DNA of 42,306 nt from a virus (taxonomy: Duplodnaviria; Heunggongvirae; Uroviricota; Caudoviricetes). The notes below the pieces were generated by a model. The model made no database searches, was not told the origin of the DNA, and was given only the letters and a program-made list of their open reading frames with translations. The translations under genes were made by a program, and so were the position numbers. Each line of letters starts with the position of its first letter. The first letter of the stretch is position 1. Location: the IMG/VR virus record IMGVR_UViG_2617271049_000012. The stretch is one strand, 5' to 3'. This document shows, piece by piece, positions 10,910-42,306 of the stretch.

Positions 10910-11119
10910 ATGATTTATACGCATGAAATGCTATGCGATGCCCGCCGGGCGTTACATGAACTGATGATCGGACGTGCTGTGGTTTCCGTCAGCAAGGACG
11001 GGCGTCAGGTTCAGTATTCGCGGGCGACAATTGGTGAACTGCGTCAGTATATTGAAGAGCTGGAAAGTGCGCTGGGTGTATCCGGACGGCGTCGTGGCCC
11101 GGCAGGAGTGGGGCTGTGA
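10910..11119 (+). CDS. W: Head-tail joining protein W
   Basis: About 69 aa; similar to lambda gpW (...AR.ALH.LM.G...V.V.KDGR.V.......L..YI.ELE.....RRRGPAG). Confidence 0.8.
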   Translation: MIYTHEMLCDARRALHELMIGRAVVSVSKDGRQVQYSRATIGELRQYIEELESALGVSGRRRGPAGVGL

Positions 11120-11928
11120 ACGGGGAACTGGTGGATATTCATGGGCAGCCTTTACGGCAAGGCATGGGATATTCTGGTGGTGGTTCCGGGTTCGGTGGGC
11201 AAATGGCAGAATGGCTGCCTGCACCGGAAAGTGCCGACGTGGCGCTCTTACCTTCCATTCATCTGGGTAACGCCCGCGCGGATGAGCTGGTCCGTAACAA
11301 CGGTATTGCATCGAATGCAGTGGAAATTCATAAGGATCATATTGTCGGGCACATGTTTCGTCTGAGTTACCGTCCCAACTGGCGCTGGCTGGGGATGTCG
11401 GAAGCAGATTCACATGCTTTTATTGAAGATGTTGAGGCGGCGTGGATGGAATACTGCGATCCGGTGTTTGGTACGATGGATGTGGAAGGGCGTCGTTCGT
11501 TTACCGAATTCATTCGTGAAGGGGTGGGGGTCCATACGTTTAACGGTGAAATTTTTGTCCAGCCCGTATGGGATGCGGAATCCACGTCATTATTCCGGAC
11601 GAAATTCAAAACCATCAGCCCGAAGCGTGTCAGTACACCCGGTTATGGTACCGGCGATCGTTTTATGCGTGCCGGGGTGGAAATAAACCGACACGGAAAA
11701 GCGCTGGCCTACCATGTTCAGGATGATGACTGGCCCGGCTACGGTGTCAGTAAATGGACACGAATTACGGCAACACTGCCTTCCGGACGACCGGGAATGA
11801 TCCATGTGTTTCAGCCACAGGAAGACGGGCAGACCCGCGGGGCCAACCAGTTTTATTCTGTAATGGAGCGTCTCAAGATGCTCGACACACTGCAGGCCAC
11901 GCAACTGCAGTCGGCGGTGGTTCGCGCC
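11116..11928 (+). CDS. B: Portal protein B, 5' portion (about 271 codons); gene interrupted by mobile element insertion
   Basis: Colinear with lambda gpB N-terminal half up to ...TQLQSAVVRA; after the junction the frame runs into 18 unrelated codons and a stop (ORF end 11982). Confidence 0.85.
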
Positions 11929-11930
11929 AT
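11924..11930. repeat. attL core (GCGCCAT), left copy of direct repeat
   Basis: Identical 7-mer at the right junction (22729..22735); flanking bases TTATG versus GTATG. Confidence 0.6.
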
Positions 11931-12059
11931 TTATGTCTATTATCTCCCCGTAGTTGTCGCCACCATTCATCAACTCCACTAAAACCCTTGATATGTCTGG
12001 AATGTCGTTTTTTGTATTTATGATGACCGTTCATTACCTTTCGTGTTTTTCGCGGTTTT

Positions 12060-12112
12060 GTGTATTGCAATGTGTATTGCAAGTTGGCGTTTGGATGGGG
12101 TGTGTATTGCAA
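12060..12112. repeat. Three direct copies of GTGTATTGCAA near attL, upstream of int (candidate arm-type or regulator binding sites)
   Basis: Copies at 12060-12070, 12072-12082 and 12102-12112; related copies near attR (22633..22654). Confidence 0.55.
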
Positions 12113-12131
12113 ATTGACGTGTAGGCTACAT

Positions 12132-13373
12132 ATGGCTATCGAGAATAAACTGACTGACAAACTTCTGAAAAGTCTTGCAGGTAAGCCGCAGGACAGACAA
12201 AAAATCATGGCTGATGGGCGGGGGCTATCTGTTCGTGTAAGCGTGGTTGGGGGAATTAGTTTCGTTTTTTACTATCGTATTGGCGGCAGGGATGCCCCTC
12301 CGGTATGGCTGACCCTTGGGCGTTATCCTGATATGTCTCTGGCAGCCGCCAGGAGATTACGCGACCAGTGCCGTGAATGGCTGGCGGAAAATCTGGATCC
12401 TCGCAGACAAATAAAACTTGTAGCTGAAAAAAACATGCGCCCTGTAACTGTAAGGGATGCGGTGCTTTACTGGTACGATAATCACGCCAGGACAGCCAGA
12501 AAGCAGCATGAGTATTTAATAAAAAGATTTGAAAAGCATATTTTTCCATATATCGGAGATATGGCTATAGAACAGTGCAAATTGCATACCTGGCTTACTG
12601 TATTTGACAGAATTAAAAAAAATGCTCCTGTTATGTCTGGTGCTATTTTTCTTGATATTAAACAGGCGTTACGTTTTTGCCGTATCAGGCAATACATTAG
12701 TTGCGATCCATTCGGTGATATTAACGTTAGTTATGTTGGACGTTCAGCAGGCATAAGGGATCGTGTTCTGAGTATTAATGAAGCCGCTGACGTATGGTCT
12801 TATGCCTATGGCAACAATTTACTTACCCTTTCATCAATACATAACCGAAGAATTATGGTTATCTGCCTGGTGTTTGGTTGCCGTCAGCAGGAGGCGCGGT
12901 TATCCACTTGGGAAGAATGGGATTTAAAAAACTGGATTTGGACAGTTCCAAAAGAGCACAGCAAGAACGGCGAGGTTATTGTAAGACCAGTCCCTGATGG
13001 AATAAAACAATGGGTTATTAATCTTTATGCGGAAACAAAGCACCGGGATTGTGTTATCGGTAGATCACTGAAGCGAGCGACAATAACAGGAGCAGCAAGC
13101 CGGATATGTAGGCGGCTAGGGCATGATGTAAATGGTCTGTGGTGCATACATGATTTCAGGCGTACATTTTCAACAATGCTTAACGATATGGGTGCCGATC
13201 CTTATATTGTAGAGCTTCTGCTTGGTCATAAAGTTAAAGGTGTGGCGGGTGTTTATAATAAAAGCAAGCATGTAAAGAAAAAACTTGAGGTTCTTAATAT
13301 GTGGGTTAATTACCTTAACACGATAGCCGGATTTAATAATAACGTTATTGAACTGAGTAAAGAGGTTGTTTGA
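12132..13373 (+). CDS. int: Tyrosine integrase, P4-type
   Basis: N-terminal P4-integrase-like region (LTDKLLKSL...KIMADGRGLSVRVSVVGGISFVFYYRIGGRD...WLTLGRYPDMSLAAARR) and C-terminal catalytic region (HDFRRTFSTMLNDMG...ELLLGHKV..VAGVYNKS); adjacent to attL. Confidence 0.9.
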   Translation: MAIENKLTDKLLKSLAGKPQDRQKIMADGRGLSVRVSVVGGISFVFYYRIGGRDAPPVWLTLGRYPDMSLAAARRLRDQCREWLAENLDPRRQIKLVAEKNMRPVTVRDAVLYWYDNHARTARKQHEYLIKRFEKHIFPYIGDMAIEQCKLHTWLTVFDRIKKNAPVMSGAIFLDIKQALRFCRIRQYISCDPFGDINVSYVGRSAGIRDRVLSINEAADVWSYAYGNNLLTLSSIHNRRIMVICLVFGCRQQEARLSTWEEWDLKNWIWTVPKEHSKNGEVIVRPVPDGIKQWVINLYAETKHRDCVIGRSLKRATITGAASRICRRLGHDVNGLWCIHDFRRTFSTMLNDMGADPYIVELLLGHKVKGVAGVYNKSKHVKKKLEVLNMWVNYLNTIAGFNNNVIELSKEVV

Positions 13374-13374
13374 T

Positions 13375-13632
13375 ATGTCAGTTTATTCACTTGTTGATGA
13401 AAAAGATTTTACTGCAATGCCGGATATTGATCGTGTCATTCGTGAAAAAGAATGCGTGGCACTTACTACGCTGGCAAATTCAACACGCTGGAAACTGGAA
13501 AAGACAGGTAAGTTCCCAAAACGTATTAAGATTGGTGAACGTGCCGCTGGCTATCGTCTCTCGGAGATTCAGGCGTGGATCCGTGGCGATTGGCACCCAG
13601 GATGGAAACCGGAAAAAACAAAACAGCAATAA
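13375..13632 (+). CDS. alpA: AlpA-family transcriptional regulator/excisionase
   Basis: Small HTH protein with AlpA-like motif (TGKFPKRIKIGERAAGYRLSEIQAWI); overlaps the int stop. Confidence 0.8.
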   Translation: MSVYSLVDEKDFTAMPDIDRVIREKECVALTTLANSTRWKLEKTGKFPKRIKIGERAAGYRLSEIQAWIRGDWHPGWKPEKTKQQ

Positions 13633-13648
13633 CCAGGAGATAAACACA

Positions 13649-13673
13649 GCCCCGCTCAATGCGGGGTTTTTTG
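13649..13673 (+). terminator. Rho-independent terminator
   Basis: CCCCGC-TCAAT-GCGGGG hairpin followed by TTTTTTG. Confidence 0.6.
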
Positions 13674-13691
13674 TATGTGAGGTAAAAAGCG

Positions 13692-14270
13692 ATGAATAAA
13701 AATATTGCCGTGACGGGCAAAGGTGACGCTCGTCTAGTGAAAAAATTCTGTGATATTCGTGATCTGGTCGTTCTGCGCTTTGATGGTGTGAACGTTCGCG
13801 TGGTGTATCTGAACGGCGATCCGTGGTTTGTTGCAGTTGACGTGTGCGCTGCGCTGGAAATTGTTGATCACAAGGTTGCGTTACGCCGTCTCGATGATGA
13901 TGAAAAGGGGGAGTGTTTAATACCCACCCTTGGCGGAAATCAAACAATGCGAACTGTATGCGAGTCAGGTTTCTACAAACTAATAGCCCGTAGCCGCAAA
14001 GCAACGACGCCTGGCACGTTCGCCCATCGTTTCAGTAACTGGGTATTCAGAAATGTGATACCGGGTATCAGAAAAACGGGGGCTTATGGTATCCCGTGGG
14101 GCGCATTACAGGATTTTTCCCGCCGTAAAGAGCAATATCAGATAAGTGCCAGCGAGAAGGGGAGGGAGCTACAGGCATGTAAGCGCAAAAAGCGTGAGCT
14201 GGAGGAAGAAGAAAAAAGGCTGATACGTGAATATCAGCCTGAGTTTTACTTTGGTGAGCGTATTCAGTAA
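13692..14270 (+). CDS. BRO-N domain protein (antirepressor-like)
   Basis: N-terminal Bro-N pattern (LRFDGVNVRVVYLNGDPWFVAVDVCAALEI...ESGFYKLIARSRKA); charged coiled-coil C-terminus. Confidence 0.75.
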   Translation: MNKNIAVTGKGDARLVKKFCDIRDLVVLRFDGVNVRVVYLNGDPWFVAVDVCAALEIVDHKVALRRLDDDEKGECLIPTLGGNQTMRTVCESGFYKLIARSRKATTPGTFAHRFSNWVFRNVIPGIRKTGAYGIPWGALQDFSRRKEQYQISASEKGRELQACKRKKRELEEEEKRLIREYQPEFYFGERIQ

Positions 14271-14552
14271 CCACTCGCAGTGCTGATTATACGGTACATC
14301 GTGTTAACCGGGAAGCTACCCACCAGCAAGGCAAAATCTTCTGCTAAAAAATGATATATGGTCAGCCGTCCGGAAAGCATGAAATTTTACAAAAATGGAA
14401 AATGAAGATTTTTATTGTGCTGGTGGGTAAAAACAAAAAGCGCCCCGTTGCCGGAGCGCCTTTGTGAACAATTAACCTACTGCGCAAAAAATGAATCTGA
14501 GCAGTGGGATTATATCAACCGTGTGACGAAGCGCCACAATTGCCGGATAACA

Positions 14553-14583
14553 GGCAAAACAAAGGCCACCCGCTACGGTGGCC
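14553..14583 (-). terminator. Rho-independent terminator for the minus-strand small-gene pair
   Basis: GGCCACC-CGCTAC-GGTGGCC hairpin with an A run on the + strand upstream (a U run on the minus-strand transcript). Confidence 0.5.
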
Positions 14584-14686
14584 CTTCAACACAAGCTACA
14601 CGTTATCCCCAACGCATGAGCATCACCAACAATGCCACATTTGCGGCTAGTGGGCAATGTGATCAGTGTGCTGGCTTGCTGGTGGG

Positions 14687-14884
14687 CTATTCCTGCTCTT
14701 TAGCATCGCCATGCTGCGATGTTTTCCAGGTATGCGATCCCATTTTTGTGCGCCTGTACTCTTTAAGGAACTTCTCAAGGACAAACGCACATGGTGCGAA
14801 TCTTTCCTGTTCTTGTTCGCTTACCGCGTTTTTGCGTTGTTTTTTCCTGGATGAGGATAATTTCTTTAATGATTTGTCAGTCAT
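14687..14884 (-). CDS. Small basic protein, paralog of the adjacent ribbon-helix-helix-like repressor
   Basis: 65-aa ORF between the RHH gene and a minus-strand terminator; shares ...SEQEQ...F.....FVLE... and the C-terminal AKEQE with 14942..15139. Confidence 0.4.
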   Translation of the reverse strand: MTDKSLKKLSSSRKKQRKNAVSEQEQERFAPCAFVLEKFLKEYRRTKMGSHTWKTSQHGDAKEQE

Positions 14885-14941
14885 CGTAGATACCTGTAAC
14901 CCAGTGCGCCACAGTTCACCGCACCACAGCGCTGGTGATGG

Positions 14942-15139
14942 TTACTCCTGCTCTTTGGCCTTCCGGCGCTGTTCATATTTTAATTTGCGTCCACAGGCAT
15001 CTAAGACCCATGCGGAAAAATTAGCACTAGGATTAGTTAATTTTTCTTGTTCAACACTGGCATCAATCCCATCTATAAGCTCGTGCGGGAATCGAATGTT
15101 TTTCTTTGCTGATTTGTTGTTTGTGTTTCCGCTAGACAT
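14942..15139 (-). CDS. Putative ribbon-helix-helix (Arc/Mnt-like) repressor
   Basis: 65 aa; N-terminal beta-strand-like KNIRFPHELIDGID; GAGGTG RBS 7 nt upstream of ATG; palindromic operators immediately upstream. Confidence 0.5.
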   Translation of the reverse strand: MSSGNTNNKSAKKNIRFPHELIDGIDASVEQEKLTNPSANFSAWVLDACGRKLKYEQRRKAKEQE

Positions 15140-15165
15140 TGGTACACCTCATTTAAATGGATTTG

Positions 15166-15246
15166 ATGGGCGCACACAATACAGCAAAAAAAGTGAGAAG
15201 TTAAGTATTGACATGTGCGCACACATAATTTTAATCTGTGCGCACA
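15166..15246. promoter_or_regulatory. Divergent control region with three palindromic operators TGTGCGCACA (one imperfect) overlapping a TTGACA -35 element
   Basis: Sites at 15168-15178 (GGGCGCACACA, imperfect), 15214-15223 and 15237-15246 (perfect 10-bp palindromes); TTGACA at 15208-15213. Confidence 0.65.
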
Positions 15247-15344
15247 GTTTGGGTTGCATTGCTCAAATTAAGCAACGCCCCGCAGTGCTCGCAACACATG
15301 CAGGGCGTCTAACCACCAACGATAGCAATAGTATCGAGGTAGCT

Positions 15345-15548
15345 ATGTTAAATCATACCACACACCCGCAAGGGCGGGACTCGCACAACCTGAATAAATA
15401 CATCTGGCGTTTTATCGCCCTGAGCACGGCACAGCCGCGCGTGATTACCATTGAGGCCACCAGCGAACAGGAAGCACGCCAGCAATCCCCGGCTGGCTGC
15501 GTGATGGTATTCGCCGCTCGTATTCGTCAGGAGGTGCGCCATGATTAA
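15345..15548 (+). CDS. Small satellite protein, possibly Icd-like (weak recollection only)
   Basis: First + strand ORF downstream of the operator region (MLNHTTHPQ...YIWRFIALSTAQPRVITIEATSEQEARQQ...); lies inside a spurious 377-aa track ORF. Confidence 0.4.
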   Translation: MLNHTTHPQGRDSHNLNKYIWRFIALSTAQPRVITIEATSEQEARQQSPAGCVMVFAARIRQEVRHD

Positions 15549-15753
15549 CCTGTCACTTACCGACCTTAACCGCATTCAGTTTCGTGAGAAATTTACCGGG
15601 CAGCTACTGGTCAATGTGGATAAAGGTCGCGTGGTGTGTAATTACCACCTGCCAGATGAAGCCATTGTCGCAACAAGGGAATCATTACAGGAACTCGCAG
15701 AACGTGCCGGAATGATTAACGCGAATATTCAGGGGGTGAGACATGTGCAATAA
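15541..15753 (+). CDS. Hypothetical small protein (70 aa)
   Basis: ATG overlapping upstream stop (ATGA); part of a tightly packed + strand operon. Confidence 0.45.
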   Translation: MINLSLTDLNRIQFREKFTGQLLVNVDKGRVVCNYHLPDEAIVATRESLQELAERAGMINANIQGVRHVQ

Positions 15754-15982
15754 CCCACGTCCGGACGCAGCCGCCGAAGCCATCAAAACGCTGATGCACG
15801 CGCTGATTGATATTTCATGCACGGCAGCAATCGCAGAAAAATACATTACCAGAGAGACGGAATATACAGGGGAAATAATCCCCCATTCGCTGGCCTACGC
15901 ACAGCTTACCGCTGATATGGCACTGAATGAGGCCAGGGCTATCCTGATTGCTGATTGTGAAAATGGGGGGGGTTATGCGTGA
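15743..15982 (+). CDS. Hypothetical small protein (79 aa)
   Basis: Overlapping-start operon member; no domain recognised. Confidence 0.4.
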   Translation: MCNNPRPDAAAEAIKTLMHALIDISCTAAIAEKYITRETEYTGEIIPHSLAYAQLTADMALNEARAILIADCENGGGYA

Positions 15983-16208
15983 TGATCGTTTTAATGCCCT
16001 GAAACAGGAATTTGATGGCGCACCGGAAGATACAGATATTGCGCTGTTATGTGTTGCTGACATGGTAAAAGCTGCATGTTTTTTACTGGAAACCGCCGAA
16101 CATTCAGGAACGGGTAGCGATATTCTCAATATTGCGTCGGACTATGCGGAATATGTGGCAGAGACGCGTTACAGAAGTAAATTCCCGGAGGGGGTGAGCC
16201 ATGCATGA
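15948..16208 (+). CDS. Hypothetical small acidic protein (start ambiguous: 15948, 15963 or 15975)
   Basis: Operon member; GGGGG RBS-like tract before ATG 15975. Confidence 0.4.
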   Translation: MLIVKMGGVMRDDRFNALKQEFDGAPEDTDIALLCVADMVKAACFLLETAEHSGTGSDILNIASDYAEYVAETRYRSKFPEGVSHA

Positions 16209-16434
16209 TATTTACAATGACACAGTAGACCATGCATACAGCGCACTTGCTTACAGTGAAAACATGCTTGAAATATTGCGCTTATGGCTTGAAACGCTTG
16301 GCGATAATGAAAGAGATAAACGCAACAGCAATATTGCAACAGCATTAATAACGCTTCTTGAGCCTGTAATAAATGAACTGCAAGAAATAGACATCTTGCA
16401 CGACAGATATAAAGAGCCACACACCGGAGAATAA
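16201..16434 (+). CDS. Hypothetical small protein (77 aa)
   Basis: ATG overlapping previous stop; operon member. Confidence 0.4.
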   Translation: MHDIYNDTVDHAYSALAYSENMLEILRLWLETLGDNERDKRNSNIATALITLLEPVINELQEIDILHDRYKEPHTGE

Positions 16435-16439
16435 AAACC

Positions 16440-16739
16440 ATGAAAAAGAAAAATTCTGGCTTTACTGCCAGCGGCCCCGCTCGGCCTGAAATCCGCCCCG
16501 GCGATATTTTCCGGGATAACTACGGCGGCACGGTAACGATTAAAAGTATTGCCGGACGGTGCGTTACTTACCGCCGTGATGGGTACAGCTACGACTGCGT
16601 GATGCCTGTTTATCAGTTCCGGCGTGATTTTTCTCTGGAACAGGCCGCACCACACAAACAGCCCACCAGCAACGCAAAGGCACGGGCGAACATTCAGAAA
16701 ATGAAAAACATGATTAACGCATTCAGGGGTAAAAAATGA
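16440..16739 (+). CDS. Hypothetical small basic protein (99 aa)
   Basis: Operon member directly upstream of rep; stop overlaps the rep start. Confidence 0.4.
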   Translation: MKKKNSGFTASGPARPEIRPGDIFRDNYGGTVTIKSIAGRCVTYRRDGYSYDCVMPVYQFRRDFSLEQAAPHKQPTSNAKARANIQKMKNMINAFRGKK

Positions 16740-18151
16740 AACTGGCACCGAACTTAAAAAAACAGCCGCACGACAAAATGACCGAAGTCATTATTTTTGC
16801 GGGTAGTGATGCCTGGGCGCACGCGAAACAATGGCAGGAGCAGGACGGGCGACTTGCTGGCGACAATGTTCCGCCTGTATGGCTTGGAGACAACCAGCTT
16901 GACGAACTGGCAGACCTGAAAATCATCGATGATGGTCGCTATTGTGTCCGGCTGTACAAGGCAGGCCACATCAAGCCGTCAAATATTAATGCCATCGGGC
17001 AAAAGCTGGCGGCGGCAGGTGTACGGGATGCGAATTATTACCCTGAGGGAATGCACAGCCAGAAGCTGGAGAACTGGCACGACTACCTGCAACGGATCCG
17101 CGAACAGACAGAGCGCGGGGAAATACTTACTGACGAGCAATACAGCCAGCGAAAAACCACGCTACCAATGAGCATTGGATCTGCAGGGTACGACACACAG
17201 CTTGATTATGTCGTTAAGGGCGTGATTCCGGCTAATTCATTGTGCAGCACATACGGCTCGAGCGGTTCCTATAAATCGTTCCTCGCGTGTTCCTGGGCGT
17301 GTCATGTTGCCACGGGTCGCCACTGGGGAGGCCGCAGGGTGGCGCATGGTTCGGTGATGTATGTCGTCGGTGAAGGGGGGATAGGTGTCCCCCGTCGTAT
17401 CAAGGCATGGGAAATCGTTAATGATGAACGGGTGGAAAATCTGTACCTGGTAAACCGCCCGATTTTTCCGGCAGTCCCGCTTGATGTCGATGAAATGGTC
17501 ATCGCTTCCCGCCAGGTTGAACGGGAAACGGGTAAACCGGTACGCATGATTATTCTGGATACGCTGGCGCGTTGCTTTGGCGGTAATGATGAAAATGACG
17601 CGCGGGATATGGGGGCGTTTATCCGTGGATGTGACGAACTGAAACGACGCACAGGGGCCACGGTGCTGGTGGTTCACCATTCCGGCAAGGATGAAACAAA
17701 GGGGGCGCGTGGTTCCAGTGCATTTCGTGCATCTCTGGACGCTGAATACCGTATTCGCCGTGAAGGTGCGGACAGTGAAGCCCTGGTTATCTCCTGCACC
17801 AAAATGAAGGACGCGGAGGAACTGAAAGAGGCTGCATATGATTTACGCGTGGTGGAGCTTTTTACCGACACTGACGGGGAGTTAATCACGTCGCTGGTGG
17901 TTGTGGATAAGCCGCGCCCACCTGTTGAACTGGAGCGCATCGAGGAGGCCGGGAACAAGACGGAGAATCATGCCGCGCTATGGCAGTGCATCAGAACGCG
18001 AACAGCACACGGGGAGGCGTGCACTATCGCCCTTCTCCGCGACGATATGAAAAAGCTGGGGTATGAAATGAAAAACTTCCGGCGCTGGCTGTACAAGCTG
18101 GAAAGCGACGGCGTAATCGCTATTGACGGTGATTATGTGCGCCCACTGTAA
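16736..18151 (+). CDS. Replication initiator/helicase (RepA-like RecA-fold ATPase with N-terminal extension)
   Basis: Walker A-like YGSSGSYKSF and Walker B-like RMIILDTLARCFGG; iteron array immediately downstream. Confidence 0.7.
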   Translation: MKLAPNLKKQPHDKMTEVIIFAGSDAWAHAKQWQEQDGRLAGDNVPPVWLGDNQLDELADLKIIDDGRYCVRLYKAGHIKPSNINAIGQKLAAAGVRDANYYPEGMHSQKLENWHDYLQRIREQTERGEILTDEQYSQRKTTLPMSIGSAGYDTQLDYVVKGVIPANSLCSTYGSSGSYKSFLACSWACHVATGRHWGGRRVAHGSVMYVVGEGGIGVPRRIKAWEIVNDERVENLYLVNRPIFPAVPLDVDEMVIASRQVERETGKPVRMIILDTLARCFGGNDENDARDMGAFIRGCDELKRRTGATVLVVHHSGKDETKGARGSSAFRASLDAEYRIRREGADSEALVISCTKMKDAEELKEAAYDLRVVELFTDTDGELITSLVVVDKPRPPVELERIEEAGNKTENHAALWQCIRTRTAHGEACTIALLRDDMKKLGYEMKNFRRWLYKLESDGVIAIDGDYVRPL

Positions 18152-18353
18152 AAAGTGAGGAGCAAAAGTGAGGATAGCGGGTAATTTAACAAAAAATCAG
18201 CGCTACTCCTCACTTTCTCACCTGTATATAGGTCAAAAAGTGAGGAATAAAAAATACATTGCAAAACAACGCATTACAGAAGAAAAAAAACAGGTGAGGA
18301 GCAGGACGGGAATAACAAAAAGTGAGGAATAAAAGTGAGTAGAGGTGAGGAAT
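18150..18353. repeat. Iteron array (about 8 copies of AAAGTGAGGA in both orientations): putative satellite replication origin
   Basis: Copies at about 18153, 18165, 18207 (inverted), 18236, 18291, 18318, 18331 and 18343, within AT-rich DNA 3' of rep. Confidence 0.7.
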
Positions 18354-18603
18354 GACCAGAAAAACCAGAGATAAGACAGCACCAAAATATCGCGCATTAG
18401 ACATGACAGAGCACGCCTTAAAGGTGGCAATCAGAACAATAGACCGCCATGCCGGAGAAGGATACGCAAAAGCACATCCAGAACTGATACGCGCATTCAT
18501 GACCACAGCGGCGGCAAACTTTGCCACGCTGACAGAACGGGAGATTGCCGAAGCGGAACAGGTGACAACCATCAACGTTAAAAACGGAGAGCATACAGCA
18601 TGA
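18352..18603 (+). CDS. Hypothetical protein (83 aa)
   Basis: ATG right after the iterons; stop overlaps the ssb start. Confidence 0.4.
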   Translation: MTRKTRDKTAPKYRALDMTEHALKVAIRTIDRHAGEGYAKAHPELIRAFMTTAAANFATLTEREIAEAEQVTTINVKNGEHTA

Positions 18604-19022
18604 CAGCACAGATAGCGGCTTACGGGCGGCTGGTGGCTGACCCGCAGTTAAAGACCACCAGCAAAGGGACACAAATGGCGATGGCGAGTATGGCGGTTCC
18701 CCTTCCGTGCAGCCAGGCAGATGACGGAACGGCGACGATGTGGTTATCCGTCCTGGCGTTTGGCAGGCAGGCCGACGCACTGGCAAAGCACCACAAAGGC
18801 GAACTGGTGAGCGTGGCGGGTAACATGCAGGTAAGCCAGTGGACAGGCCAGAACGGCGAAACGCGGCAGGGCTGGCAGGTTATCGCAGACAGCGTAATCA
18901 GTGCCAGAACGGCGCGACCGGGCGGCAAAAAAGGCCAGCAGGGCCAGGCTACTGACGCACTGAACAGGGCAAAACAACAGGCGGGAAATGATGATCCGTA
19001 CGGGGATAACATACCGTTTTAA
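18600..19022 (+). CDS. ssb: Single-stranded DNA-binding protein (SSB-like)
   Basis: OB-fold-like core, Gly/Gln-rich linker and acidic C-terminal tip (DDPYGDNIPF) resembling the SSB DDDIPF tail. Confidence 0.7.
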   Translation: MTAQIAAYGRLVADPQLKTTSKGTQMAMASMAVPLPCSQADDGTATMWLSVLAFGRQADALAKHHKGELVSVAGNMQVSQWTGQNGETRQGWQVIADSVISARTARPGGKKGQQGQATDALNRAKQQAGNDDPYGDNIPF

Positions 19023-19035
19023 GCAACGAGTGACA

Positions 19036-19063
19036 GAAGCCGGGATTTTTCCCGGCTTTTTTG
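19036..19063 (+). terminator. Rho-independent terminator after ssb
   Basis: AGCCGGG-ATTTTT-CCCGGCT followed by TTTTTTG; a second hairpin (19076-19100) with an upstream A run could terminate minus-strand transcription. Confidence 0.6.
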
Positions 19064-19196
19064 TGCGCAAAAAAAATCCCCCGGGATGAGGTTCCGGGGG
19101 ATTTCACGCCGCTAACGTGATTAGCGCTGAATGACTCTGTGGTACAAGGAGTAAAACCACGGCATCATGATTTCATGATTTGCAACAACAGTCAAT

Positions 19197-19219
19197 ATCA
19201 TTGCAAAAAATGCAATGAT
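19197..19219. promoter_or_regulatory. Perfect palindrome ATCATTGCA-AAAAA-TGCAATGAT upstream of the satellite capsid operon (candidate activator/operator site)
   Basis: 9-bp inverted arms around a 5-bp A spacer; shares the ATTGCAA core with the repeats at both island ends; preceded by direct repeats CATGATTT. Confidence 0.5.
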
Positions 19220-19280
19220 GATTAAAATCATGAATGACTTTTCGTTATGTTTATTTTTTAGTCAAAGAGGAATCTCATTT

Positions 19281-19487
19281 ATGGGAACACAGAAGCCGGG
19301 CGGTGTATCCGTGTACATCAGCCCCGATATTATCGCCGCACTTAATGCGCGCTTTGAGGAGAACGCAGAGGCAGGAAAAAAAATCGGCCTTGATCCGTTG
19401 TGCCTGGTGAAGCCGTCAGTCGGCTGGATGGTACGCAGCCATTTACGCGCTGCGCTTGGTATGAATCAGCCTCATGGGGGTGAGTAA
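19281..19487 (+). CDS. Hypothetical small protein preceding the capsid gene
   Basis: ATG with AAGAGGAA RBS; stop overlaps the capsid ATG (TAATG). Confidence 0.4.
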   Translation: MGTQKPGGVSVYISPDIIAALNARFEENAEAGKKIGLDPLCLVKPSVGWMVRSHLRAALGMNQPHGGE

Positions 19488-20542
19488 TGACAGCGCCGCA
19501 ACTGGTAAGCACACCAACGCTACTGAAAAATATCGGGCGCGAAGATGTGCCGGAATTTAAATTTAATCCACTCTTTACTACGTTGTTCTTTCCGAACGTC
19601 GCTACTTTCAGCACCAGAGATATTGCACTTGATACGCTGGATATTGAAAACGTGGTCATGAGTCCGTTTTGTTCTCCAATGTCAGGCAGCCAGGTTATGC
19701 GTGACAAAGGTTTCACAACGAACACGTTCACGCCGGGTTATATGAAGCCCAAACACGTTATTGATCCCACCAAAACAATCATGCGCATGCCTGGAGAACA
19801 GATCGGCAATGGTCAGTCTTCCCCGGCACTACGCCGCGTAAAAATGGTTCACGACAGCCAGAAAAAACAGCTTGCTGCCATCAAAGCGCGTGTTGAATGG
19901 CTGGCGGTCAATGCCATCACAACAGGCCGTAACGTTATTGAGGGCGAAGGCATTGAGCGTTATGAAATTGACTGGGGATTACCCGAAACCAATCATATTA
20001 CGCAGGCTGGCGGGAAAGAATGGTCAAAACAGGATGCCGAAACGTTTGATCCGATAAGCGACATTGAGGCTTACGCTGATTTTTCCGAAGGTACGGTAAA
20101 TATTATCGTCATAGGTGGCGAAGCCTGGCGTATTTTGCGCTCGTTCCGTCGATTCCGCGAACTAATGGACACGCGTCGCGGTTCAAACTCGTCACTTGAA
20201 CTTGCGCTAAAAGATTTGGGCGGCGTTGTCAGCTTCAAGGGGTATCTCGGTGATGTGGCGATCGTGGTTTATTCCGGTCGTTATGACGACGAAAACGGGC
20301 AGCAGCAATATTTCCTGAAACAAAACATGATGGTTTTCGGCAATACCGAAAATAAAGGCCTTGTTGCTTATGGTGCCATCATGGATCAGGACGCGGCACG
20401 CGAGGGATTTTCTGAGGGGATGTACTACCCGAAAAATTATATCGTACCGGGCGATCCGGCGATTGAATACGTGCAGACGCACAGCGCCCCGCAGCCAGTA
20501 CCCGTGGATATTGGTCGCTTTGTTACCGTCGAAGTGAAATAA
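19487..20542 (+). CDS. Major capsid protein, lambda gpE-like (satellite-encoded paralog)
   Basis: 351 aa colinear with lambda gpE (F.F.PLF...FF.....PGY.KPKH...NITQAGG.EWSK.D..TFDP..D.EAY......NII...WR.LRSF..F.E..DTRRGSNS.LE.A.KDLG..VS.KGY.GDVAIVVYSGRY...). Diverged from the host-phage E at 25544..26572. Confidence 0.9.
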   Translation: MTAPQLVSTPTLLKNIGREDVPEFKFNPLFTTLFFPNVATFSTRDIALDTLDIENVVMSPFCSPMSGSQVMRDKGFTTNTFTPGYMKPKHVIDPTKTIMRMPGEQIGNGQSSPALRRVKMVHDSQKKQLAAIKARVEWLAVNAITTGRNVIEGEGIERYEIDWGLPETNHITQAGGKEWSKQDAETFDPISDIEAYADFSEGTVNIIVIGGEAWRILRSFRRFRELMDTRRGSNSSLELALKDLGGVVSFKGYLGDVAIVVYSGRYDDENGQQQYFLKQNMMVFGNTENKGLVAYGAIMDQDAAREGFSEGMYYPKNYIVPGDPAIEYVQTHSAPQPVPVDIGRFVTVEVK

Positions 20543-20552
20543 AGGGGATCGT

Positions 20553-20882
20553 ATGCCAACACCTTACACGCAATTCCTTTCCGGCACGCAGGAACTGGTC
20601 AGCACGCTGGCCTGTTTTGCCAGTGCCGGAGAAATTAAAGCGAGAACTCCGCTGATGCAGAACGGCGCGGGCCTGATGGTTGAGTGGGACGGTACACCCG
20701 GTAAGGCGGTGTATCTGACCATATCGGACATTAACACGGCCACAAAAAACCGCGCACAGGTTTATAAGTGCGGGGTTTTTAATATCGATGAAATTAACTG
20801 GCCTGATACAGCGGACACGTTCGAGAAAAAAGTGTCGGCTTTTGTTGGTTCCGGTATTTCCGTGCAGCCTTTAGGGCAATAA
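20553..20882 (+). CDS. Head decoration protein, lambda gpD-like (satellite-encoded)
   Basis: 109 aa; gpD-like motifs (TPLM......WDGT.G.AV.......YK.G.F....WPD.A.....AF.G..IS) directly after the capsid gene. Confidence 0.65.
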   Translation: MPTPYTQFLSGTQELVSTLACFASAGEIKARTPLMQNGAGLMVEWDGTPGKAVYLTISDINTATKNRAQVYKCGVFNIDEINWPDTADTFEKKVSAFVGSGISVQPLGQ

Positions 20883-20896
20883 TTTTGTGGTGATTT

Positions 20897-21322
20897 ATGA
20901 CTGAGAAAGCAAATTCAACCAGAGCATTGATCATGGCACTGCCTGAGGCGCAGAAATACCCGACGCTTGCGGAAAATCTCGCAAATAATGGCGCATCACT
21001 GACAGAAGCCCGAACGGTGCTTACTGCAAAGGCTGAGAGTGATAAACAGCGCATAGAGGGTATCAAGGCGTTACCGCTGGCATCAAAATACCCTGAGTTC
21101 ACCAGTAAGCTGATTGAGTGTGGTTCTGAAGTAATGACAGTAACCTATGCACAAACGTTACTGGCTGCCGTGGATGCCCAGGCAATGATGCAGGAAAAGA
21201 AAACGGCTTTTCTGTTTGAAGCGTACATGGAAAAGCACAGCCCGAAATGTGTTGGGCCAGCAGCCGGTGATGGCAACGCCGGACTGACCGAAGATGAAAA
21301 GCTGTTGCTGTCTGTTAAGTAA
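20897..21322 (+). CDS. Putative scaffold protein (Nu3-like) with ALPEA/ALPLA repeat motifs
   Basis: Two repeats (ALPEAQKYPTLAENLANNGASLTEARTVL / ALPLASKYPEFTSKLIECGSEVMTVTYAQTLLAAVD) resembling the ALPEAKGREQLA..LAEQPGMTVEQAKTLLAAAP repeats in the host-phage C/Nu3. Confidence 0.5.
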   Translation: MTEKANSTRALIMALPEAQKYPTLAENLANNGASLTEARTVLTAKAESDKQRIEGIKALPLASKYPEFTSKLIECGSEVMTVTYAQTLLAAVDAQAMMQEKKTAFLFEAYMEKHSPKCVGPAAGDGNAGLTEDEKLLLSVK

Positions 21323-21336
21323 CTGAAATGAACGTT

Positions 21337-21368
21337 CGCGAGGCTGGCAAGGTCTCGCGATTTTTTTT
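21337..21368 (+). terminator. Rho-independent terminator
   Basis: TCGCGAG-loop-CTCGCGA followed by TTTTTTTT. Confidence 0.6.
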
Positions 21369-21394
21369 GTATCCGGAACGGTGGTGATCGCCCC

Positions 21395-21480
21395 AATTTT
21401 CACGGGTCCTTTCCAGAATCAGAAACACCGCGGGGCGGCAGACGCGCAAAAACGCGCTATTTATGAAAATTTTTCAGGAA
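21395..21480 (+). other. Satellite cos site (cosQ/cosN-like) mimicking the host-phage cos
   Basis: CACGGGTCCTTTCC...CGCGGGGCGGCAGACGCGC...CGCTATTTATGAAAATTTTTCAGG parallels the host cos at 8250..8330; directly upstream of the satellite terS. Confidence 0.75.
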
Positions 21481-21620
21481 AAAGCATGTCGGTACTTCTC
21501 GCGCATAACTGTTTGTTTTTATTAAAATCAACCACCAGGAACATACGACATCATAAAGCCCAAAAATCCTGTTTTTTTGGCGTTTCATGTCGGAACTGGT
21601 TTTTGATAAGGAATTGATAG

Positions 21621-22223
21621 ATGAATGTTAATAAAAATAATCTTGCGAAGATTTTTGGCGTCGATCCGCGCACGATTGAACGATGGCAAACGCAAGGGCT
21701 TCCCCATGTATCTGGTGGGGGTAAAGGTGTGGAGGTGACTTTCGACTCTGCGCAGGTGATCGAATGGTATGCACAGAGGGAGAAGGACATCGAAAACGAA
21801 AAACTCCGCAGGGAACTTGATGATTTACGTGCCGATGGTGAATCAGATTTACAGCCAGGCACAACAGAATACGAACGCTATCGCCTCACCAAAGCACAGG
21901 CGGACGGGCAGGAGCTAAAGAACACCAAGGAGACAGGGGAAGTTATCGATACTGAGTTCGTGCTCTATGCGCTTCGTGGGCTGGCGAGCCAGATTTCTTC
22001 GATCATGGATAGTTTACCGCTCACAATGCAAAGGCAGTTCCCCGCGATGACTCAGACAATGATCGAGGGACTGAGGAAGGAAACAGCACGGGCCTGTAAT
22101 GCGTGCGCTAAAACTGCCGATAACCTGCCCCGCATTCTGGAAGACTACCTGATGGAAACAACCGGAAACGTGCCGGAGAAATTACGGCAACAGAAAGGTG
22201 AGTGGCAGCCGCGCAATTATTGA
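21621..22223 (+). CDS. Terminase small subunit, Nu1-like (satellite-encoded paralog)
   Basis: N-terminal region near-colinear with the host Nu1 ([79 protein letters not shown]); C-terminal part diverged and longer (200 aa). Confidence 0.85.
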   Translation: MNVNKNNLAKIFGVDPRTIERWQTQGLPHVSGGGKGVEVTFDSAQVIEWYAQREKDIENEKLRRELDDLRADGESDLQPGTTEYERYRLTKAQADGQELKNTKETGEVIDTEFVLYALRGLASQISSIMDSLPLTMQRQFPAMTQTMIEGLRKETARACNACAKTADNLPRILEDYLMETTGNVPEKLRQQKGEWQPRNY

Positions 22224-22233
22224 ACAAAACTGA

Positions 22234-22296
22234 GAAAGGATCTGATAACGTCATTTTTGGCCCAAAATGACCACTGTCAGATCCTTTCTTTTTTTG
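22234..22296 (+). terminator. Long-stem terminator after the satellite terS
   Basis: AGAAAGGATCTGA...TCAGATCCTTTCT inverted repeat followed by TTTTTTT. Confidence 0.55.
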
Positions 22297-22470
22297 ATGA
22301 TTTTACCATTAAACAATGAGTTACAGAGAAGAAGAACGGATCTGACTTTTCCCGAAAAATTTTCATAAACAGTTAAGAATTGCGCGTATGGCTACCCCCG
22401 GTGTTTTATTTTCCAGGAAGGACCCGCCACAATTACGGCATTGTTTTCCATCACCACGGAGGCCATGACA

Positions 22471-22656
22471 ATGACCGAAGCCGAAATGCTCAAAATGATT
22501 CGCCGCGTTACCGGATCCAGCAAGACAGCAGGCAAACAGGAGACCACGCAGCCGGACAGCGTGATAGCCGAAAATTACGCGCGTGTGGTGGCTGAGGTGA
22601 TGCGCCGTGACGGTATTCACAAGCAACAATTTGCGTATTGCAATGTGTATTGCTAA
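22471..22656 (+). CDS. Hypothetical small protein at the right end of the island
   Basis: GGAGG RBS 9 nt upstream of ATG 22471; 3' end runs through the GTATTGCAA repeats near attR. Confidence 0.3.
   Translation: MTEAEMLKMIRRVTGSSKTAGKQETTQPDSVIAENYARVVAEVMRRDGIHKQQFAYCNVYC
22633..22654. repeat. Two direct copies of (G/T)CGTATTGCAA / GTGTATTGC near attR
   Basis: Same motif and orientation as the three copies near attL. Confidence 0.55.
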
Positions 22657-22728
22657 CCCTCCAAACGGGTGAAATATGCAAACATAACATATTGTTTTGT
22701 CTTTTTATTTTTTCGTATCTTTTCATAA

Positions 22729-22735
22729 GCGCCAT
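22729..22735. repeat. attR core (GCGCCAT), right copy of direct repeat
   Basis: Identical to 11924..11930; its last base pair is the first base of the portal codon ATG (M) that resumes the reading frame. Confidence 0.6.
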
Positions 22736-23492
22736 GTATGCCGCCACGATTGAATCCACACTGGATTCGGAAAAAGCGTTTGAATATATCGCCGGGGTGG
22801 GAGATGGAGGTAAAAATCCCCTGAACACCATCATGAAAGGCTACGCGCGTTATTACGCCACCAATACGGTAAAACTGGGAGGGGTCCGTATTCCGCATCT
22901 TTACCCGGGAGATTCACTGAATCTGCAGACAGCCCAGAATGCGGATAATGGTTTTTCTGAACTGGAAAAGGCGCTGTTACGTTACATTGCTGCCGGACTG
23001 GGTGTGTCGTATGAGCAGCTTTCCCGGGATTATTCACAGGTCAGTTATTCCAGTGCCAGGGCATCCGCCAATGAGTCGTGGCGGTATTTTATGGGAAAAC
23101 GAAAATTTGTGGCCAGTCGCCTGGCGTCACAGATGTTTGCCTGCTGGCTGGAGGAAGCCCTTATTCGTGGTGTGATCCGTCCGCCGAAATCCCGTTTCTC
23201 ATTCTGGGAGGCCCGTTCCGGGTGGTGCCGTGCCGAGTGGATTGGTGCCGGTCGTATGGCGATTGATGGCCTTAAGGAAGTGCAGGAAGCGGTGATGCGC
23301 ATTGAAGGCGGCCTGAGTACATACGAGAAAGAGCTGGCCCTGATGGGGGATGACTATCAGGAGATTTTCCGCCAGCAGCTACGGGAAACTCAGGAGCGAC
23401 AGGCTGCCGGTCTTCCGCGTCCGGTCTGGATAAAGGACGCGTTTCAACAGCAGATCCGACAGACAACGGGAGAAAAAGGCGATGCGCTGTAA
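22734..23492 (+). CDS. B: Portal protein B, 3' portion (about 252 codons)
   Basis: MYAATIES...DSLNLQTAQ..DNG.S..E..LLRYIAAGLGVSYEQLSR.Y.Q.SYS.ARASANESW.YFMG.RKFVAS...WIG.GRMAIDGLKEVQEAVM.IE.GLSTYEKE colinear with the lambda gpB C-terminal half; joins in frame to 11928. Confidence 0.85.
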   Translation: MYAATIESTLDSEKAFEYIAGVGDGGKNPLNTIMKGYARYYATNTVKLGGVRIPHLYPGDSLNLQTAQNADNGFSELEKALLRYIAAGLGVSYEQLSRDYSQVSYSSARASANESWRYFMGKRKFVASRLASQMFACWLEEALIRGVIRPPKSRFSFWEARSGWCRAEWIGAGRMAIDGLKEVQEAVMRIEGGLSTYEKELALMGDDYQEIFRQQLRETQERQAAGLPRPVWIKDAFQQQIRQTTGEKGDAL

Positions 23493-41753: not shown

Positions 41754-42306
41754 TGGCATTCAGAATGAGTGAACAACCACGGACCATAAAAATTTATAAT
41801 CTGCTGGCCGGAACTAATGAATTTATTGGTGAAGGTGACGCATATATTCCGCCTCATACCGGTCTGCCTGCAAACAGTACCGATATTGCACCGCCAGATA
41901 TTCCGGCTGGCTTTGTGGCTGTTTTCAACAGTGATGAGGCATCGTGGCATCTCGTTGAAGACCATCGGGGTAAAACCGTCTATGACGTGGCTTCCGGCGA
42001 CGCGTTATTTATTTCTGAACCCGGTCCGTTACCGGAAAATGTTACCTGGTTATCGCCGGGAGGGGAATATCAGAAGTGGAACGGCACAGCCTGGGTGAAG
42101 GATACGGAAGCAGAANNNNNNNNNNAAGCCTGATGCAGGTAGCTAGTGAGCATATTGCGCCGCTTCAGGATGCTGCAGATCTGGAAATTGCAACGGAGGA
42201 AGAAACCTCGTTGCTGGAAGCCTGGAAGAAGTATCGGGTATTGCTGAACCGTGTTGATACATCAACTGCACCTGATATTGAGTGGCCGACTTCACCTGCA
42301 GAGTAA
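41753..42306 (+). CDS. tfa: Tail fibre assembly protein Tfa (interrupted by a 9-nt N run at 42116..42124)
   Basis: [51 protein letters not shown]... matches lambda Tfa; the frame differs on either side of the N run, so the gap is not length-true; TAA at the window end. Confidence 0.85.

Follow-up and report, generated by a model that had tools for sequence, protein, structure and literature searches.

In the phage-inducible chromosomal island (PICI) EcCICFT073, the rep-ori segment maintains a temperature-sensitive plasmid, the maintenance of which suffers when either rep or ori is deleted (Fillol-Salom et al. 2018, PMC6092414). In the general layout described there, an AT-rich region directly 3' of rep has a set of iterons on either side; no iteron sequences were found in the supplementary files of that study. 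The pathogenicity islands of staphylococci (SaPIs) combine initiator and helicase in one protein, the C-terminal winged helix of which reads short iterons; six to twelve of these lie directly downstream of rep around an AT-rich centre, and loader-free loading was proposed (Qiao et al. 2022, PMC9371898). A further group, the helper-embedded PICIs, has replication gene groups named 'Primase', SSB and DUF5906, while AAA_25 and iterons do not appear in the main text of that report (Mageeney et al. 2023, PMC10111431). The present analysis concerns IMG/VR virus record IMGVR_UViG_2617271049_000012, a stretch of 42,306 nucleotides referred to below as the window, in which a PICI is embedded in a lambda-type prophage. 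The repeat array directly 3' of the rep gene of this island, at 18152-18351, is very probably the island's replication origin, as judged from comparisons of its sequence.

The array takes up the whole interval (18150-18353) that separates rep from the next open reading frame (ORF), from the rep TAA (18149-18151) to the ATG of that ORF (18352). Nine copies of (A)AAGTGAGGA were found, seven direct and two inverted. Five copies of AAAGTGAGGA are exact, four of them on the plus strand (18152, 18165, 18237, 18319) and one on the minus strand (18207); a further copy, AAAGTGAGTA at 18332, has one mismatch. The 7-nt core GTGAGGA was further found at 18294-18300 and 18345-18351, and a minus-strand GTGAGAA copy at 18215-18221. 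A preliminary description of this DNA had placed about 8 copies, in both orientations, at 18150-18353, in AT-rich DNA right after a RepA-like gene. Its coordinates and count were right, as was the base composition (GC 0.37-0.38 in the array against 0.50-0.60 in the flanking genes); the opposite orientation applies to the pair at 18207-18224 only, the other seven copies being direct. The parts of the array are as follows.

18152-18161, plus strand, iteron 1, AAAGTGAGGA, starting 1 nt past the rep stop codon
18165-18174, plus strand, iteron 2, AAAGTGAGGA, 13 bp from iteron 1
18175-18206, no strand, left spacer of 32 bp that includes the A/T-rich run TAATTTAACAAAAAAT; its sequence varies between lineages
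18207-18216, minus strand, iteron 3, AAAGTGAGGA, left arm of the inverted pair
18215-18224, minus strand, iteron 4, degenerate, CAGGTGAGAA
18225-18230, no strand, central TATATA, predicted first melting point, between the diverging iterons 3/4 and 5
18237-18246, plus strand, iteron 5, AAAGTGAGGA, right arm of the inverted pair
18247-18290, no strand, A/T-rich stretch ATAAAAAATACATTGCAAAACAACGCATTACAGAAGAAAAAAAA, candidate DNA unwinding region; most other lineages are A/T-rich at the same place
18291-18300, plus strand, iteron 6, CAGGTGAGGA
18319-18328, plus strand, iteron 7, AAAGTGAGGA
18332-18341, plus strand, iteron 8, AAAGTGAGTA, one mismatch
18342-18351, plus strand, iteron 9, GAGGTGAGGA, adjoining the ATG of orf83

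Seven of the 10 exact occurrences of GTGAGGA in the 42,306-base window fall inside the 200-bp array, against an expectation of ~0.02 derived from dinucleotide-preserving shuffles (Poisson P ~3e-16). Outside the array only three one-mismatch 10-mers were found across 42 kb, a number consistent with chance, and no second iteron cluster was found elsewhere in the island. Four iterons lie to the left of TATATA and five to the right, with an A-rich stretch separating copies 5 and 6, and neighbouring iterons are spaced 10-13 bp, about one helical turn. Iterons 3/4 (minus) and 5 (plus) diverge around TATATA, while the outer-left copies 1 and 2 are oriented like the right-hand set. The diverging pair (18207-18246) forms a 46-bp near-palindrome with TATATA at its centre (hairpin dG -10.2, z -5.3), and the 30-mer with the lowest stability in the array begins at 18225 and is among the top 0.4% of the window. 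No DnaA box (up to one mismatch) and no GATC was found in 18101-18400. A weak site resembling that of integration host factor (IHF; 18264-18276, one mismatch) was judged not meaningful.

Inspection of CFT073 revealed synteny with the window: in both islands the order is DUF4222, rep, ori, orf83, ssb, major capsid, decoration, and the proteins of EcCICFT073 are 71% (DUF4222), 82% (orf83), 71% (SSB) and 64% (major capsid) identical to those of the window. The replicases differ. Only the N-terminal 134 residues are common to the two Rep proteins (62% identity), beyond which that of EcCICFT073 is of the D5_N/DUF5906/Pox_D5 type whereas that of the window consists of AAA_25 and a winged helix. In the same gap after rep, EcCICFT073 carries ~11 copies of TCTACC/GGTAGA around AT-rich DNA; its left and right iteron sets are oppositely oriented, whereas seven of the nine copies in the window are direct.

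The SaPI replicons share with the window a one-protein initiator-helicase with a winged helix, and iterons right after rep around an AT-rich centre. The SaPI Reps, however, are described as AAA+ helicases that move 3' to 5', whereas the window Rep has a RecA-fold core of the RepA/DnaB type; the two have no detectable sequence relationship, and the SaPI iterons are of 5-6 nt, against 9-10 nt in the window. The position of the array directly 3' of rep, and its several short iterons grouped in two sets around an AT-rich region, are features of a PICI-type origin. This kind of origin is already known, being like the proven origins of EcCICFT073 and the SaPIs, and is here served by a RecA-fold helicase with a winged helix.

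The protein concerned and its two relevant parts are encoded as follows.

16736-18151, plus strand, rep, encoding a 471-aa initiator-helicase (Pfam AAA_25, E=5e-44)
17921-18148, plus strand, coding region of the Rep winged helix (aa 396-471), predicted iteron-binding module
18074-18076, plus strand, codon of Asn447, the N-cap residue of the recognition helix predicted at aa 448-457; candidate determinant of iteron base 4

Rep consists of an N-domain (aa 1-135), an AAA_25 RecA-fold helicase core (aa 152-320) and a C-terminal winged helix (aa about 405-471). The core is the sole Pfam match in the protein; in the homologue alignment the Walker A residues G174-S181 and the Walker B residue D275 are invariant. 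The only sequence match in PDB at E<0.01 was the RSF1010 RepA helicase, 1g8y (E=0.0045). When modelled with AlphaFold2 (AF2), the C-terminal 76 residues gave a predicted local distance difference test score (pLDDT) of 86.8 and folded as three helices and a beta hairpin, the third helix being the recognition helix. A Foldseek search of the full-length model against PDB returned weak RecA/Rad51-like matches only, a result that is uninformative beyond the fold class because the full-length model is poor. In all likelihood the protein is a helicase of the RepA/DnaB type that has its own origin-binding domain. Neither of the genes flanking rep (DUF4222 and orf83) is annotated as an initiator or a primase.

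No Pfam match was obtained for the N-terminal alpha/beta domain (aa 1-135; 16736-17140 in the window), which matches the N-terminal segment of PHROG 864, 'DNA primase' (profile positions 84-203 of 1064). This domain behaves as if it were a portable module, and one may speculate that it contacts DUF4222 or a host factor. Among sequenced phages, matches covered only the helicase core of Rep, at <60% identity and with partial coverage; the sole match in the phage collection that ran through the winged helix to aa 471 was a Salmonella genome contig, not a phage genome. No sequenced phage genome therefore carries the helicase together with the winged helix, and the rep-ori module is not a replicon common to true phages.

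For a wider comparison, 80 loci across Enterobacterales were chosen from an alignment of Rep homologues, and the 350-400 bp past each rep stop codon was scanned for repeated words with no motif assumed. An array follows rep in almost all of the 80 loci, and 71 of them could be typed with a conserved layout. Counted from the rep stop, and all within 250 bp of it, direct copies lie at about +1, +13 and sometimes +24, followed by an inverted copy at about +55, a central TATAYA and a direct copy at +85; then come an A/T-rich stretch and, from +145 to +190, three or four direct copies. TATAYA is present inside the inverted pair in 63 of the 71 typed loci, compared with 2.3% of control 60-mers. The core alters in all copies of an array together, its forms including GTGAGGA, GTGGGGA, GTGGGGGA and GTGCGGCA; by count, GTGGGGG(A) was present in 30 of the 71 loci, GTGAGGA in 27, GTGCGGC(A) in 8 and GTGGGGA in 6. 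When the arrays of E. coli were set against those of Xenorhabdus or Rosenbergiella, the iteron positions were 62% identical and the spacers 46%, with the iterons higher in 24 of 25 pairs.

In loci of the GTGGGGGA class (L051, L039, L060 and similar) the final rep codons, AAA GTG GGG GAT TAA (...KVGD*), themselves form an iteron, so that in this class the origin overlaps the 3' end of rep. A degenerate, mixed array (GTGAGTA, GTGGGGA, GTGAGGA) was seen in an E. coli metagenome contig (L087, positions 4190-4300, Rep P0002), where the inverted pair with TATATA is duplicated ~270 bp downstream and followed by different cargo genes (ProQ, PerC); possibly this origin was duplicated or has recombined.

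The Rep family is mosaic, its AAA_25 helicase cores falling into distinct classes and the Reps of Xenorhabdus and Pectobacterium bearing a zinc-ribbon primase and Toprim at the N-terminus. Across the aligned loci the iteron core tracks the last ~75 residues of Rep, that is, the winged helix, and not the helicase core or the N-domain. Thus the Xenorhabdus Reps carry GTGAGGA iterons despite their primase-Toprim N-terminus, and the Rep of EcCICFT073 has unrelated iterons although its N-domain is shared with the window. Among the E. coli Reps P0058, P0096 and P0107 the helicase cores are 98-100% identical and the C-termini differ; their arrays read GTGAGG, GTGGGGA and GTGGG(C/A), respectively, in the same layout, and the downstream gene is nearly the same in two of the three. 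Conversely, the window Rep and P0058 are 68% identical in the helicase core, 60% in the N-domain and 94% in the recognition-helix region, and their iterons are identical. Because of these E. coli recombinants, the link between iterons and winged helix is not mere shared descent of whole elements. Co-variation of this kind is what one would expect of an initiator and its origin. As specificity partners in iteron binding, orf83 and DUF4222 were rejected, since they are conserved at 82% and 71% identity in EcCICFT073, the iterons of which are unrelated.

A single position in the winged helix was found to follow the fourth base of the core. Residue 447 predicts this base in 79 of 79 typed loci, a figure that overstates the number of independent events since the loci are phylogenetically related, and it is the only winged-helix alignment column to do so: Asn goes with A (32 loci), Ser with C (9), His with G (10) and Lys with G (28). 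It is tentatively proposed, as a possibility that we favour somewhat less than its opposite, that a one-residue code exists in which the N-cap residue (Asn447) sets base 4 of GTG-N-GG and in which a joint switch of residue and iteron would yield orthogonal specificities. If this were true, several PICIs, even within one helper prophage, could share a cell without cross-firing or competition between initiators, and sequence might suffice to predict the origin specificity of these satellites, and one substitution to re-engineer it.

The identification of the array as an origin is drawn from its statistics, its position, the synteny with EcCICFT073, the conserved layout, the concerted change of the copies, the co-variation with the winged helix, the higher identity of iteron positions than of spacers, and the circular Klebsiella element described below. 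Several points weigh against it. The functional support comes entirely from EcCICFT073, an island with a different type of helicase. In the SaPIs, at least two iterons in opposite directions are present on each side (PMC9371898), whereas in the window only the central pair is inverted and the rest are direct. One induced helper-embedded PICI replicated weakly or not at all after excision in two of three repeats (PMC10111431). The AF2 model of full-length Rep has a mean pLDDT of 63, with the C-terminal half of the helicase core at <50, and Rep has no recognizable primase domain. Besides the relatedness of the loci, the E. coli recombinants supply only a few clearly independent switches. With these points taken into account, an origin remains by far the most probable function of 18152-18351, and the placing of a satellite origin after the replicase by the preliminary description is supported by the synteny, by the layout kept in 71 of 80 loci and by the co-variation. 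The same description took the island's own SSB to imply autonomous replication. The ssb gene is indeed present and consistent with this; it is no proof. A helper-embedded island can also replicate passively as part of the helper prophage (PMC10111431).

The steps of initiation (Rep-iteron binding, site of melting, self-loading, source of the primer and firing of the origin) were inferred as follows. On induction of the island, excised or not, the winged helix of Rep would bind all nine copies of (A)AAGTGAGGA, with Asn447, where the recognition helix starts, reading the A at core position 4. The spacing of 10-13 bp would favour cooperative binding on one face of the DNA, and the diverging pair (18207-18246) together with the right-hand cluster would put Rep oligomers on either side of the TATATA/A-rich centre (18225-18290). 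This centre, the least stable DNA of the array, would then melt, and the helicase would load itself, a mode proposed for the SaPI Reps (PMC9371898), without DnaA. The island SSB would coat the unwound strands. Synthesis would probably be primed by the host primase, the likeliest source because of the missing DnaA box and GATC and the lack of a recognizable primase domain in Rep.

Four other functions for the repeats were weighed. The one that survives best, though unlikely, is that the array is mainly a transcriptional or translational operator for orf83, ssb and capsid, bound by Rep or another island regulator. The first iteron touches the rep stop and the last abuts the ATG of orf83, which places the array inside a one-directional operon, and plasmid iteron-binding initiators often also regulate their own genes. 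However, no sigma-70-like promoter or terminator-like site was predicted on either strand of 18150-18353, and the conserved layout, with iterons on both sides of a TATAYA and A/T-rich centre directly 3' of rep, is that proven in EcCICFT073, an island in which orf83 and DUF4222 stay 71-82% identical while the iterons differ completely. A regulatory side-role for the array is possible, with the last iteron adjoining the start of orf83.

Less probable again, and by a clear step, is a copy-control, incompatibility or partition locus, in which the repeats would serve Rep handcuffing or segregation and initiation would take place elsewhere. Plasmid iterons can act in copy control besides initiation, and the second inverted pair with TATATA ~270 bp downstream in the E. 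coli metagenome contig would suit such a locus. The island, though, has its only iteron cluster here with the AT-rich core inside it, and PICIs are reported to lack a plasmid state as well as genes for copy number or segregation (PMC6092414).

That the repeats are a packaging signal, either pac or cosB-like sites for the Nu1-like TerS encoded by the island (21621-22223), is very improbable. The cosB of lambda does consist of repeated TerS-binding sites (PMC6092414). A cos-like region, however, lies directly upstream of the island terS (~21400-21620), 3 kb from the array, which for its part co-varies with Rep and not with TerS and is also present in islands devoid of terS, such as EcCICFT073.

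It is scarcely credible that the repeats arose by chance or from base composition, as Shine-Dalgarno-like GAGG motifs of a purine-rich leader, or that they form an RNA element: GTGAGGA does resemble a ribosome-binding site and the inverted pair can fold as the hairpin given above, but the enrichment is far above chance, the comparative data already contradict this reading, and in the same slots related lineages have cores, such as GTGCGGCA, that do not look like a ribosome-binding site. An Rfam search of the array gave no family at threshold, with only sub-threshold matches to eukaryotic miRNA hairpins, and on this result an RNA element was rejected.

An origin of the PICI type being retained, the locus was also set beside other replicons. 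In the alpha protein of phage P4, also the replicase of a satellite, helicase function and C-terminal origin binding are combined, and the binding sites are short repeats; the protein is composed of a primase and a superfamily-3 helicase, and the sites used by P4 are two that lie apart, ori and crr. Set side by side by description, the window has one array and a RecA-fold helicase without primase. The IncQ oriV has iterons beside AT-rich DNA; there a separate RepC binds iterons of ~20 bp, the RepA helicase has no DNA-recognition domain, and RepB is the primase. The window replicon is not of this (RSF1010) type, since only the helicase core is distantly related, the iterons are of 9-10 bp and Rep itself carries the winged helix. 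Classical iteron plasmids (pSC101, R6K, RK2) have a non-helicase, iteron-binding initiator and host DnaA boxes in the origin; in the window the protein linked to the iterons is itself an AAA_25 helicase, and there is no DnaA box. P4 and the window island both have int, AlpA/Vis-like and Icd-like genes (PMC6092414).

The island embedded in this prophage thus carries a complete replicon of its own (initiator-helicase, origin and SSB), which bears on how helper-embedded satellites are amplified after induction. The current understanding of PICI replication is unchanged by the finding; the comparison of ~80 loci adds to it a blueprint of the origin that is conserved in a Rep family widespread among Enterobacterales, and a candidate, testable single-residue determinant of origin specificity. 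Possible uses are in annotating PICI origins, in predicting the compatibility of satellite replicons within the same cell and in designing orthogonal small replicons.

Matches to the rep-to-ssb segment of the window were found in 1885 of 5426 complete E. coli genomes; that of E. coli VG35A2 is 99.8% identical. A further related locus (L084) is CP018459.1, the circular, 16,971-bp pKp_Goe_795-4 of Klebsiella pneumoniae, deposited as a plasmid. It is a capsid-encoding PICI-like element with int, a Rep of the same family as that of the window, GTGCGGCA iterons, and genes for capsid, head-tail adaptor, terminase and tape measure. It may be an excised, replicating satellite caught by assembly, which fits an episomal form and is no proof of one. 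The 10,790-bp E. coli sequence NZ_CP148328.1 looks like a similar case, with a primase-type Rep.

The remaining genes of the island, which is transcribed from one strand throughout and also holds an Icd-like gene and several small ORFs, are given here with the extent of the whole.

11937-22737, plus strand, whole satellite, a helper-embedded PICI of ~10.8 kb in the lambda-type portal gene of the prophage
12060-13373, plus strand, integrase (int)
13366-13632, plus strand, alpA (Pfam AlpA, E=4e-15)
13692-14270, plus strand, Bro-N gene
16440-16739, plus strand, DUF4222 gene (Pfam), overlapping the start of rep; a conserved partner of PICI rep genes
18352-18603, plus strand, orf83 (phrog_1231), conserved in PICIs and 82% identical to its EcCICFT073 counterpart
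18600-19022, plus strand, satellite SSB, 140 aa (Pfam SSB, E=4e-16)
19487-20542, plus strand, lambda E-like major capsid protein (Phage_cap_E)
20553-20882, plus strand, lambda D-like decoration protein
21621-22223, plus strand, Nu1-like terS

The C-terminal tail of the satellite SSB (...DNIPF) resembles that of the host SSB. In its gene set, single direction, size within 10-20 kb, late-gene homologues and defined late-gene site the island is a Gram-negative, helper-embedded PICI. Like those described by Mageeney et al. (PMC10111431), it lies inside a lambda-type late gene in the same orientation and has the four zones integration, Bro, replication and late.

The satellite divides the portal gene into 11116-11982, which covers positions 2-242 of the Pfam profile, and 22638-23492, which covers 235-353; the break is at Phage_portal_2 positions ~235-242, and the satellite has the orientation of the gene; the site, B:Phage_portal_2:241, and the helper-embedded configuration have been published (PMC10111431). 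The junctions, at ~11925-11936 and 22728-22739, correspond to aa 258 and 253 of an intact portal, and the repeated core GCGCCAT(T/G)TATG is present at both ends. The helper makes no portal until the island excises. A 24-nt direct repeat (12057/22630) had been considered as the att core and was rejected when mapping to the intact portal put the crossover at the above junctions. The repeat TGTGTATTGCAA occurs three or four times at the start of int (12057-12120), with a 24-nt copy near the right end (22630-22653); because the crossover maps elsewhere, these copies are likelier to be arm-type or regulator sites, and may be sites for the integrase arm-type contacts or for AlpA or another regulator, not the crossover core.

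The cos-like region of the island is 79% identical to ~8240-8450, just upstream of the prophage Nu1 gene, and shares with it the CGGGGCGGCAG block and the long stretch GCTATTTATGAAAATTTTTC; it is probably the packaging site of the island. Ten consecutive N at 42116-42125, close to the right-hand end of the window, are due either to masking or to a gap in the assembly. The Bro zone of the island, which is variable, contains a 377-aa ORF with a TTG start (14415-15548), the C-terminal 90 residues of which match PHROG 6196, 'transcriptional repressor', with no match for the remainder.

An almost identical module for replication and capsid is found in E. coli VG35A2 (L001) and E. coli PapRG-04-4 (L002), combined there with different integrases (40% and 26% identical) at different sites. 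The element of VG35A2 is in the chromosome, between rcnR and thiM, and that of PapRG-04-4 in a contractile-tail prophage, between the head and baseplate genes. In these two elements the integration module has been exchanged independently of the replicon.

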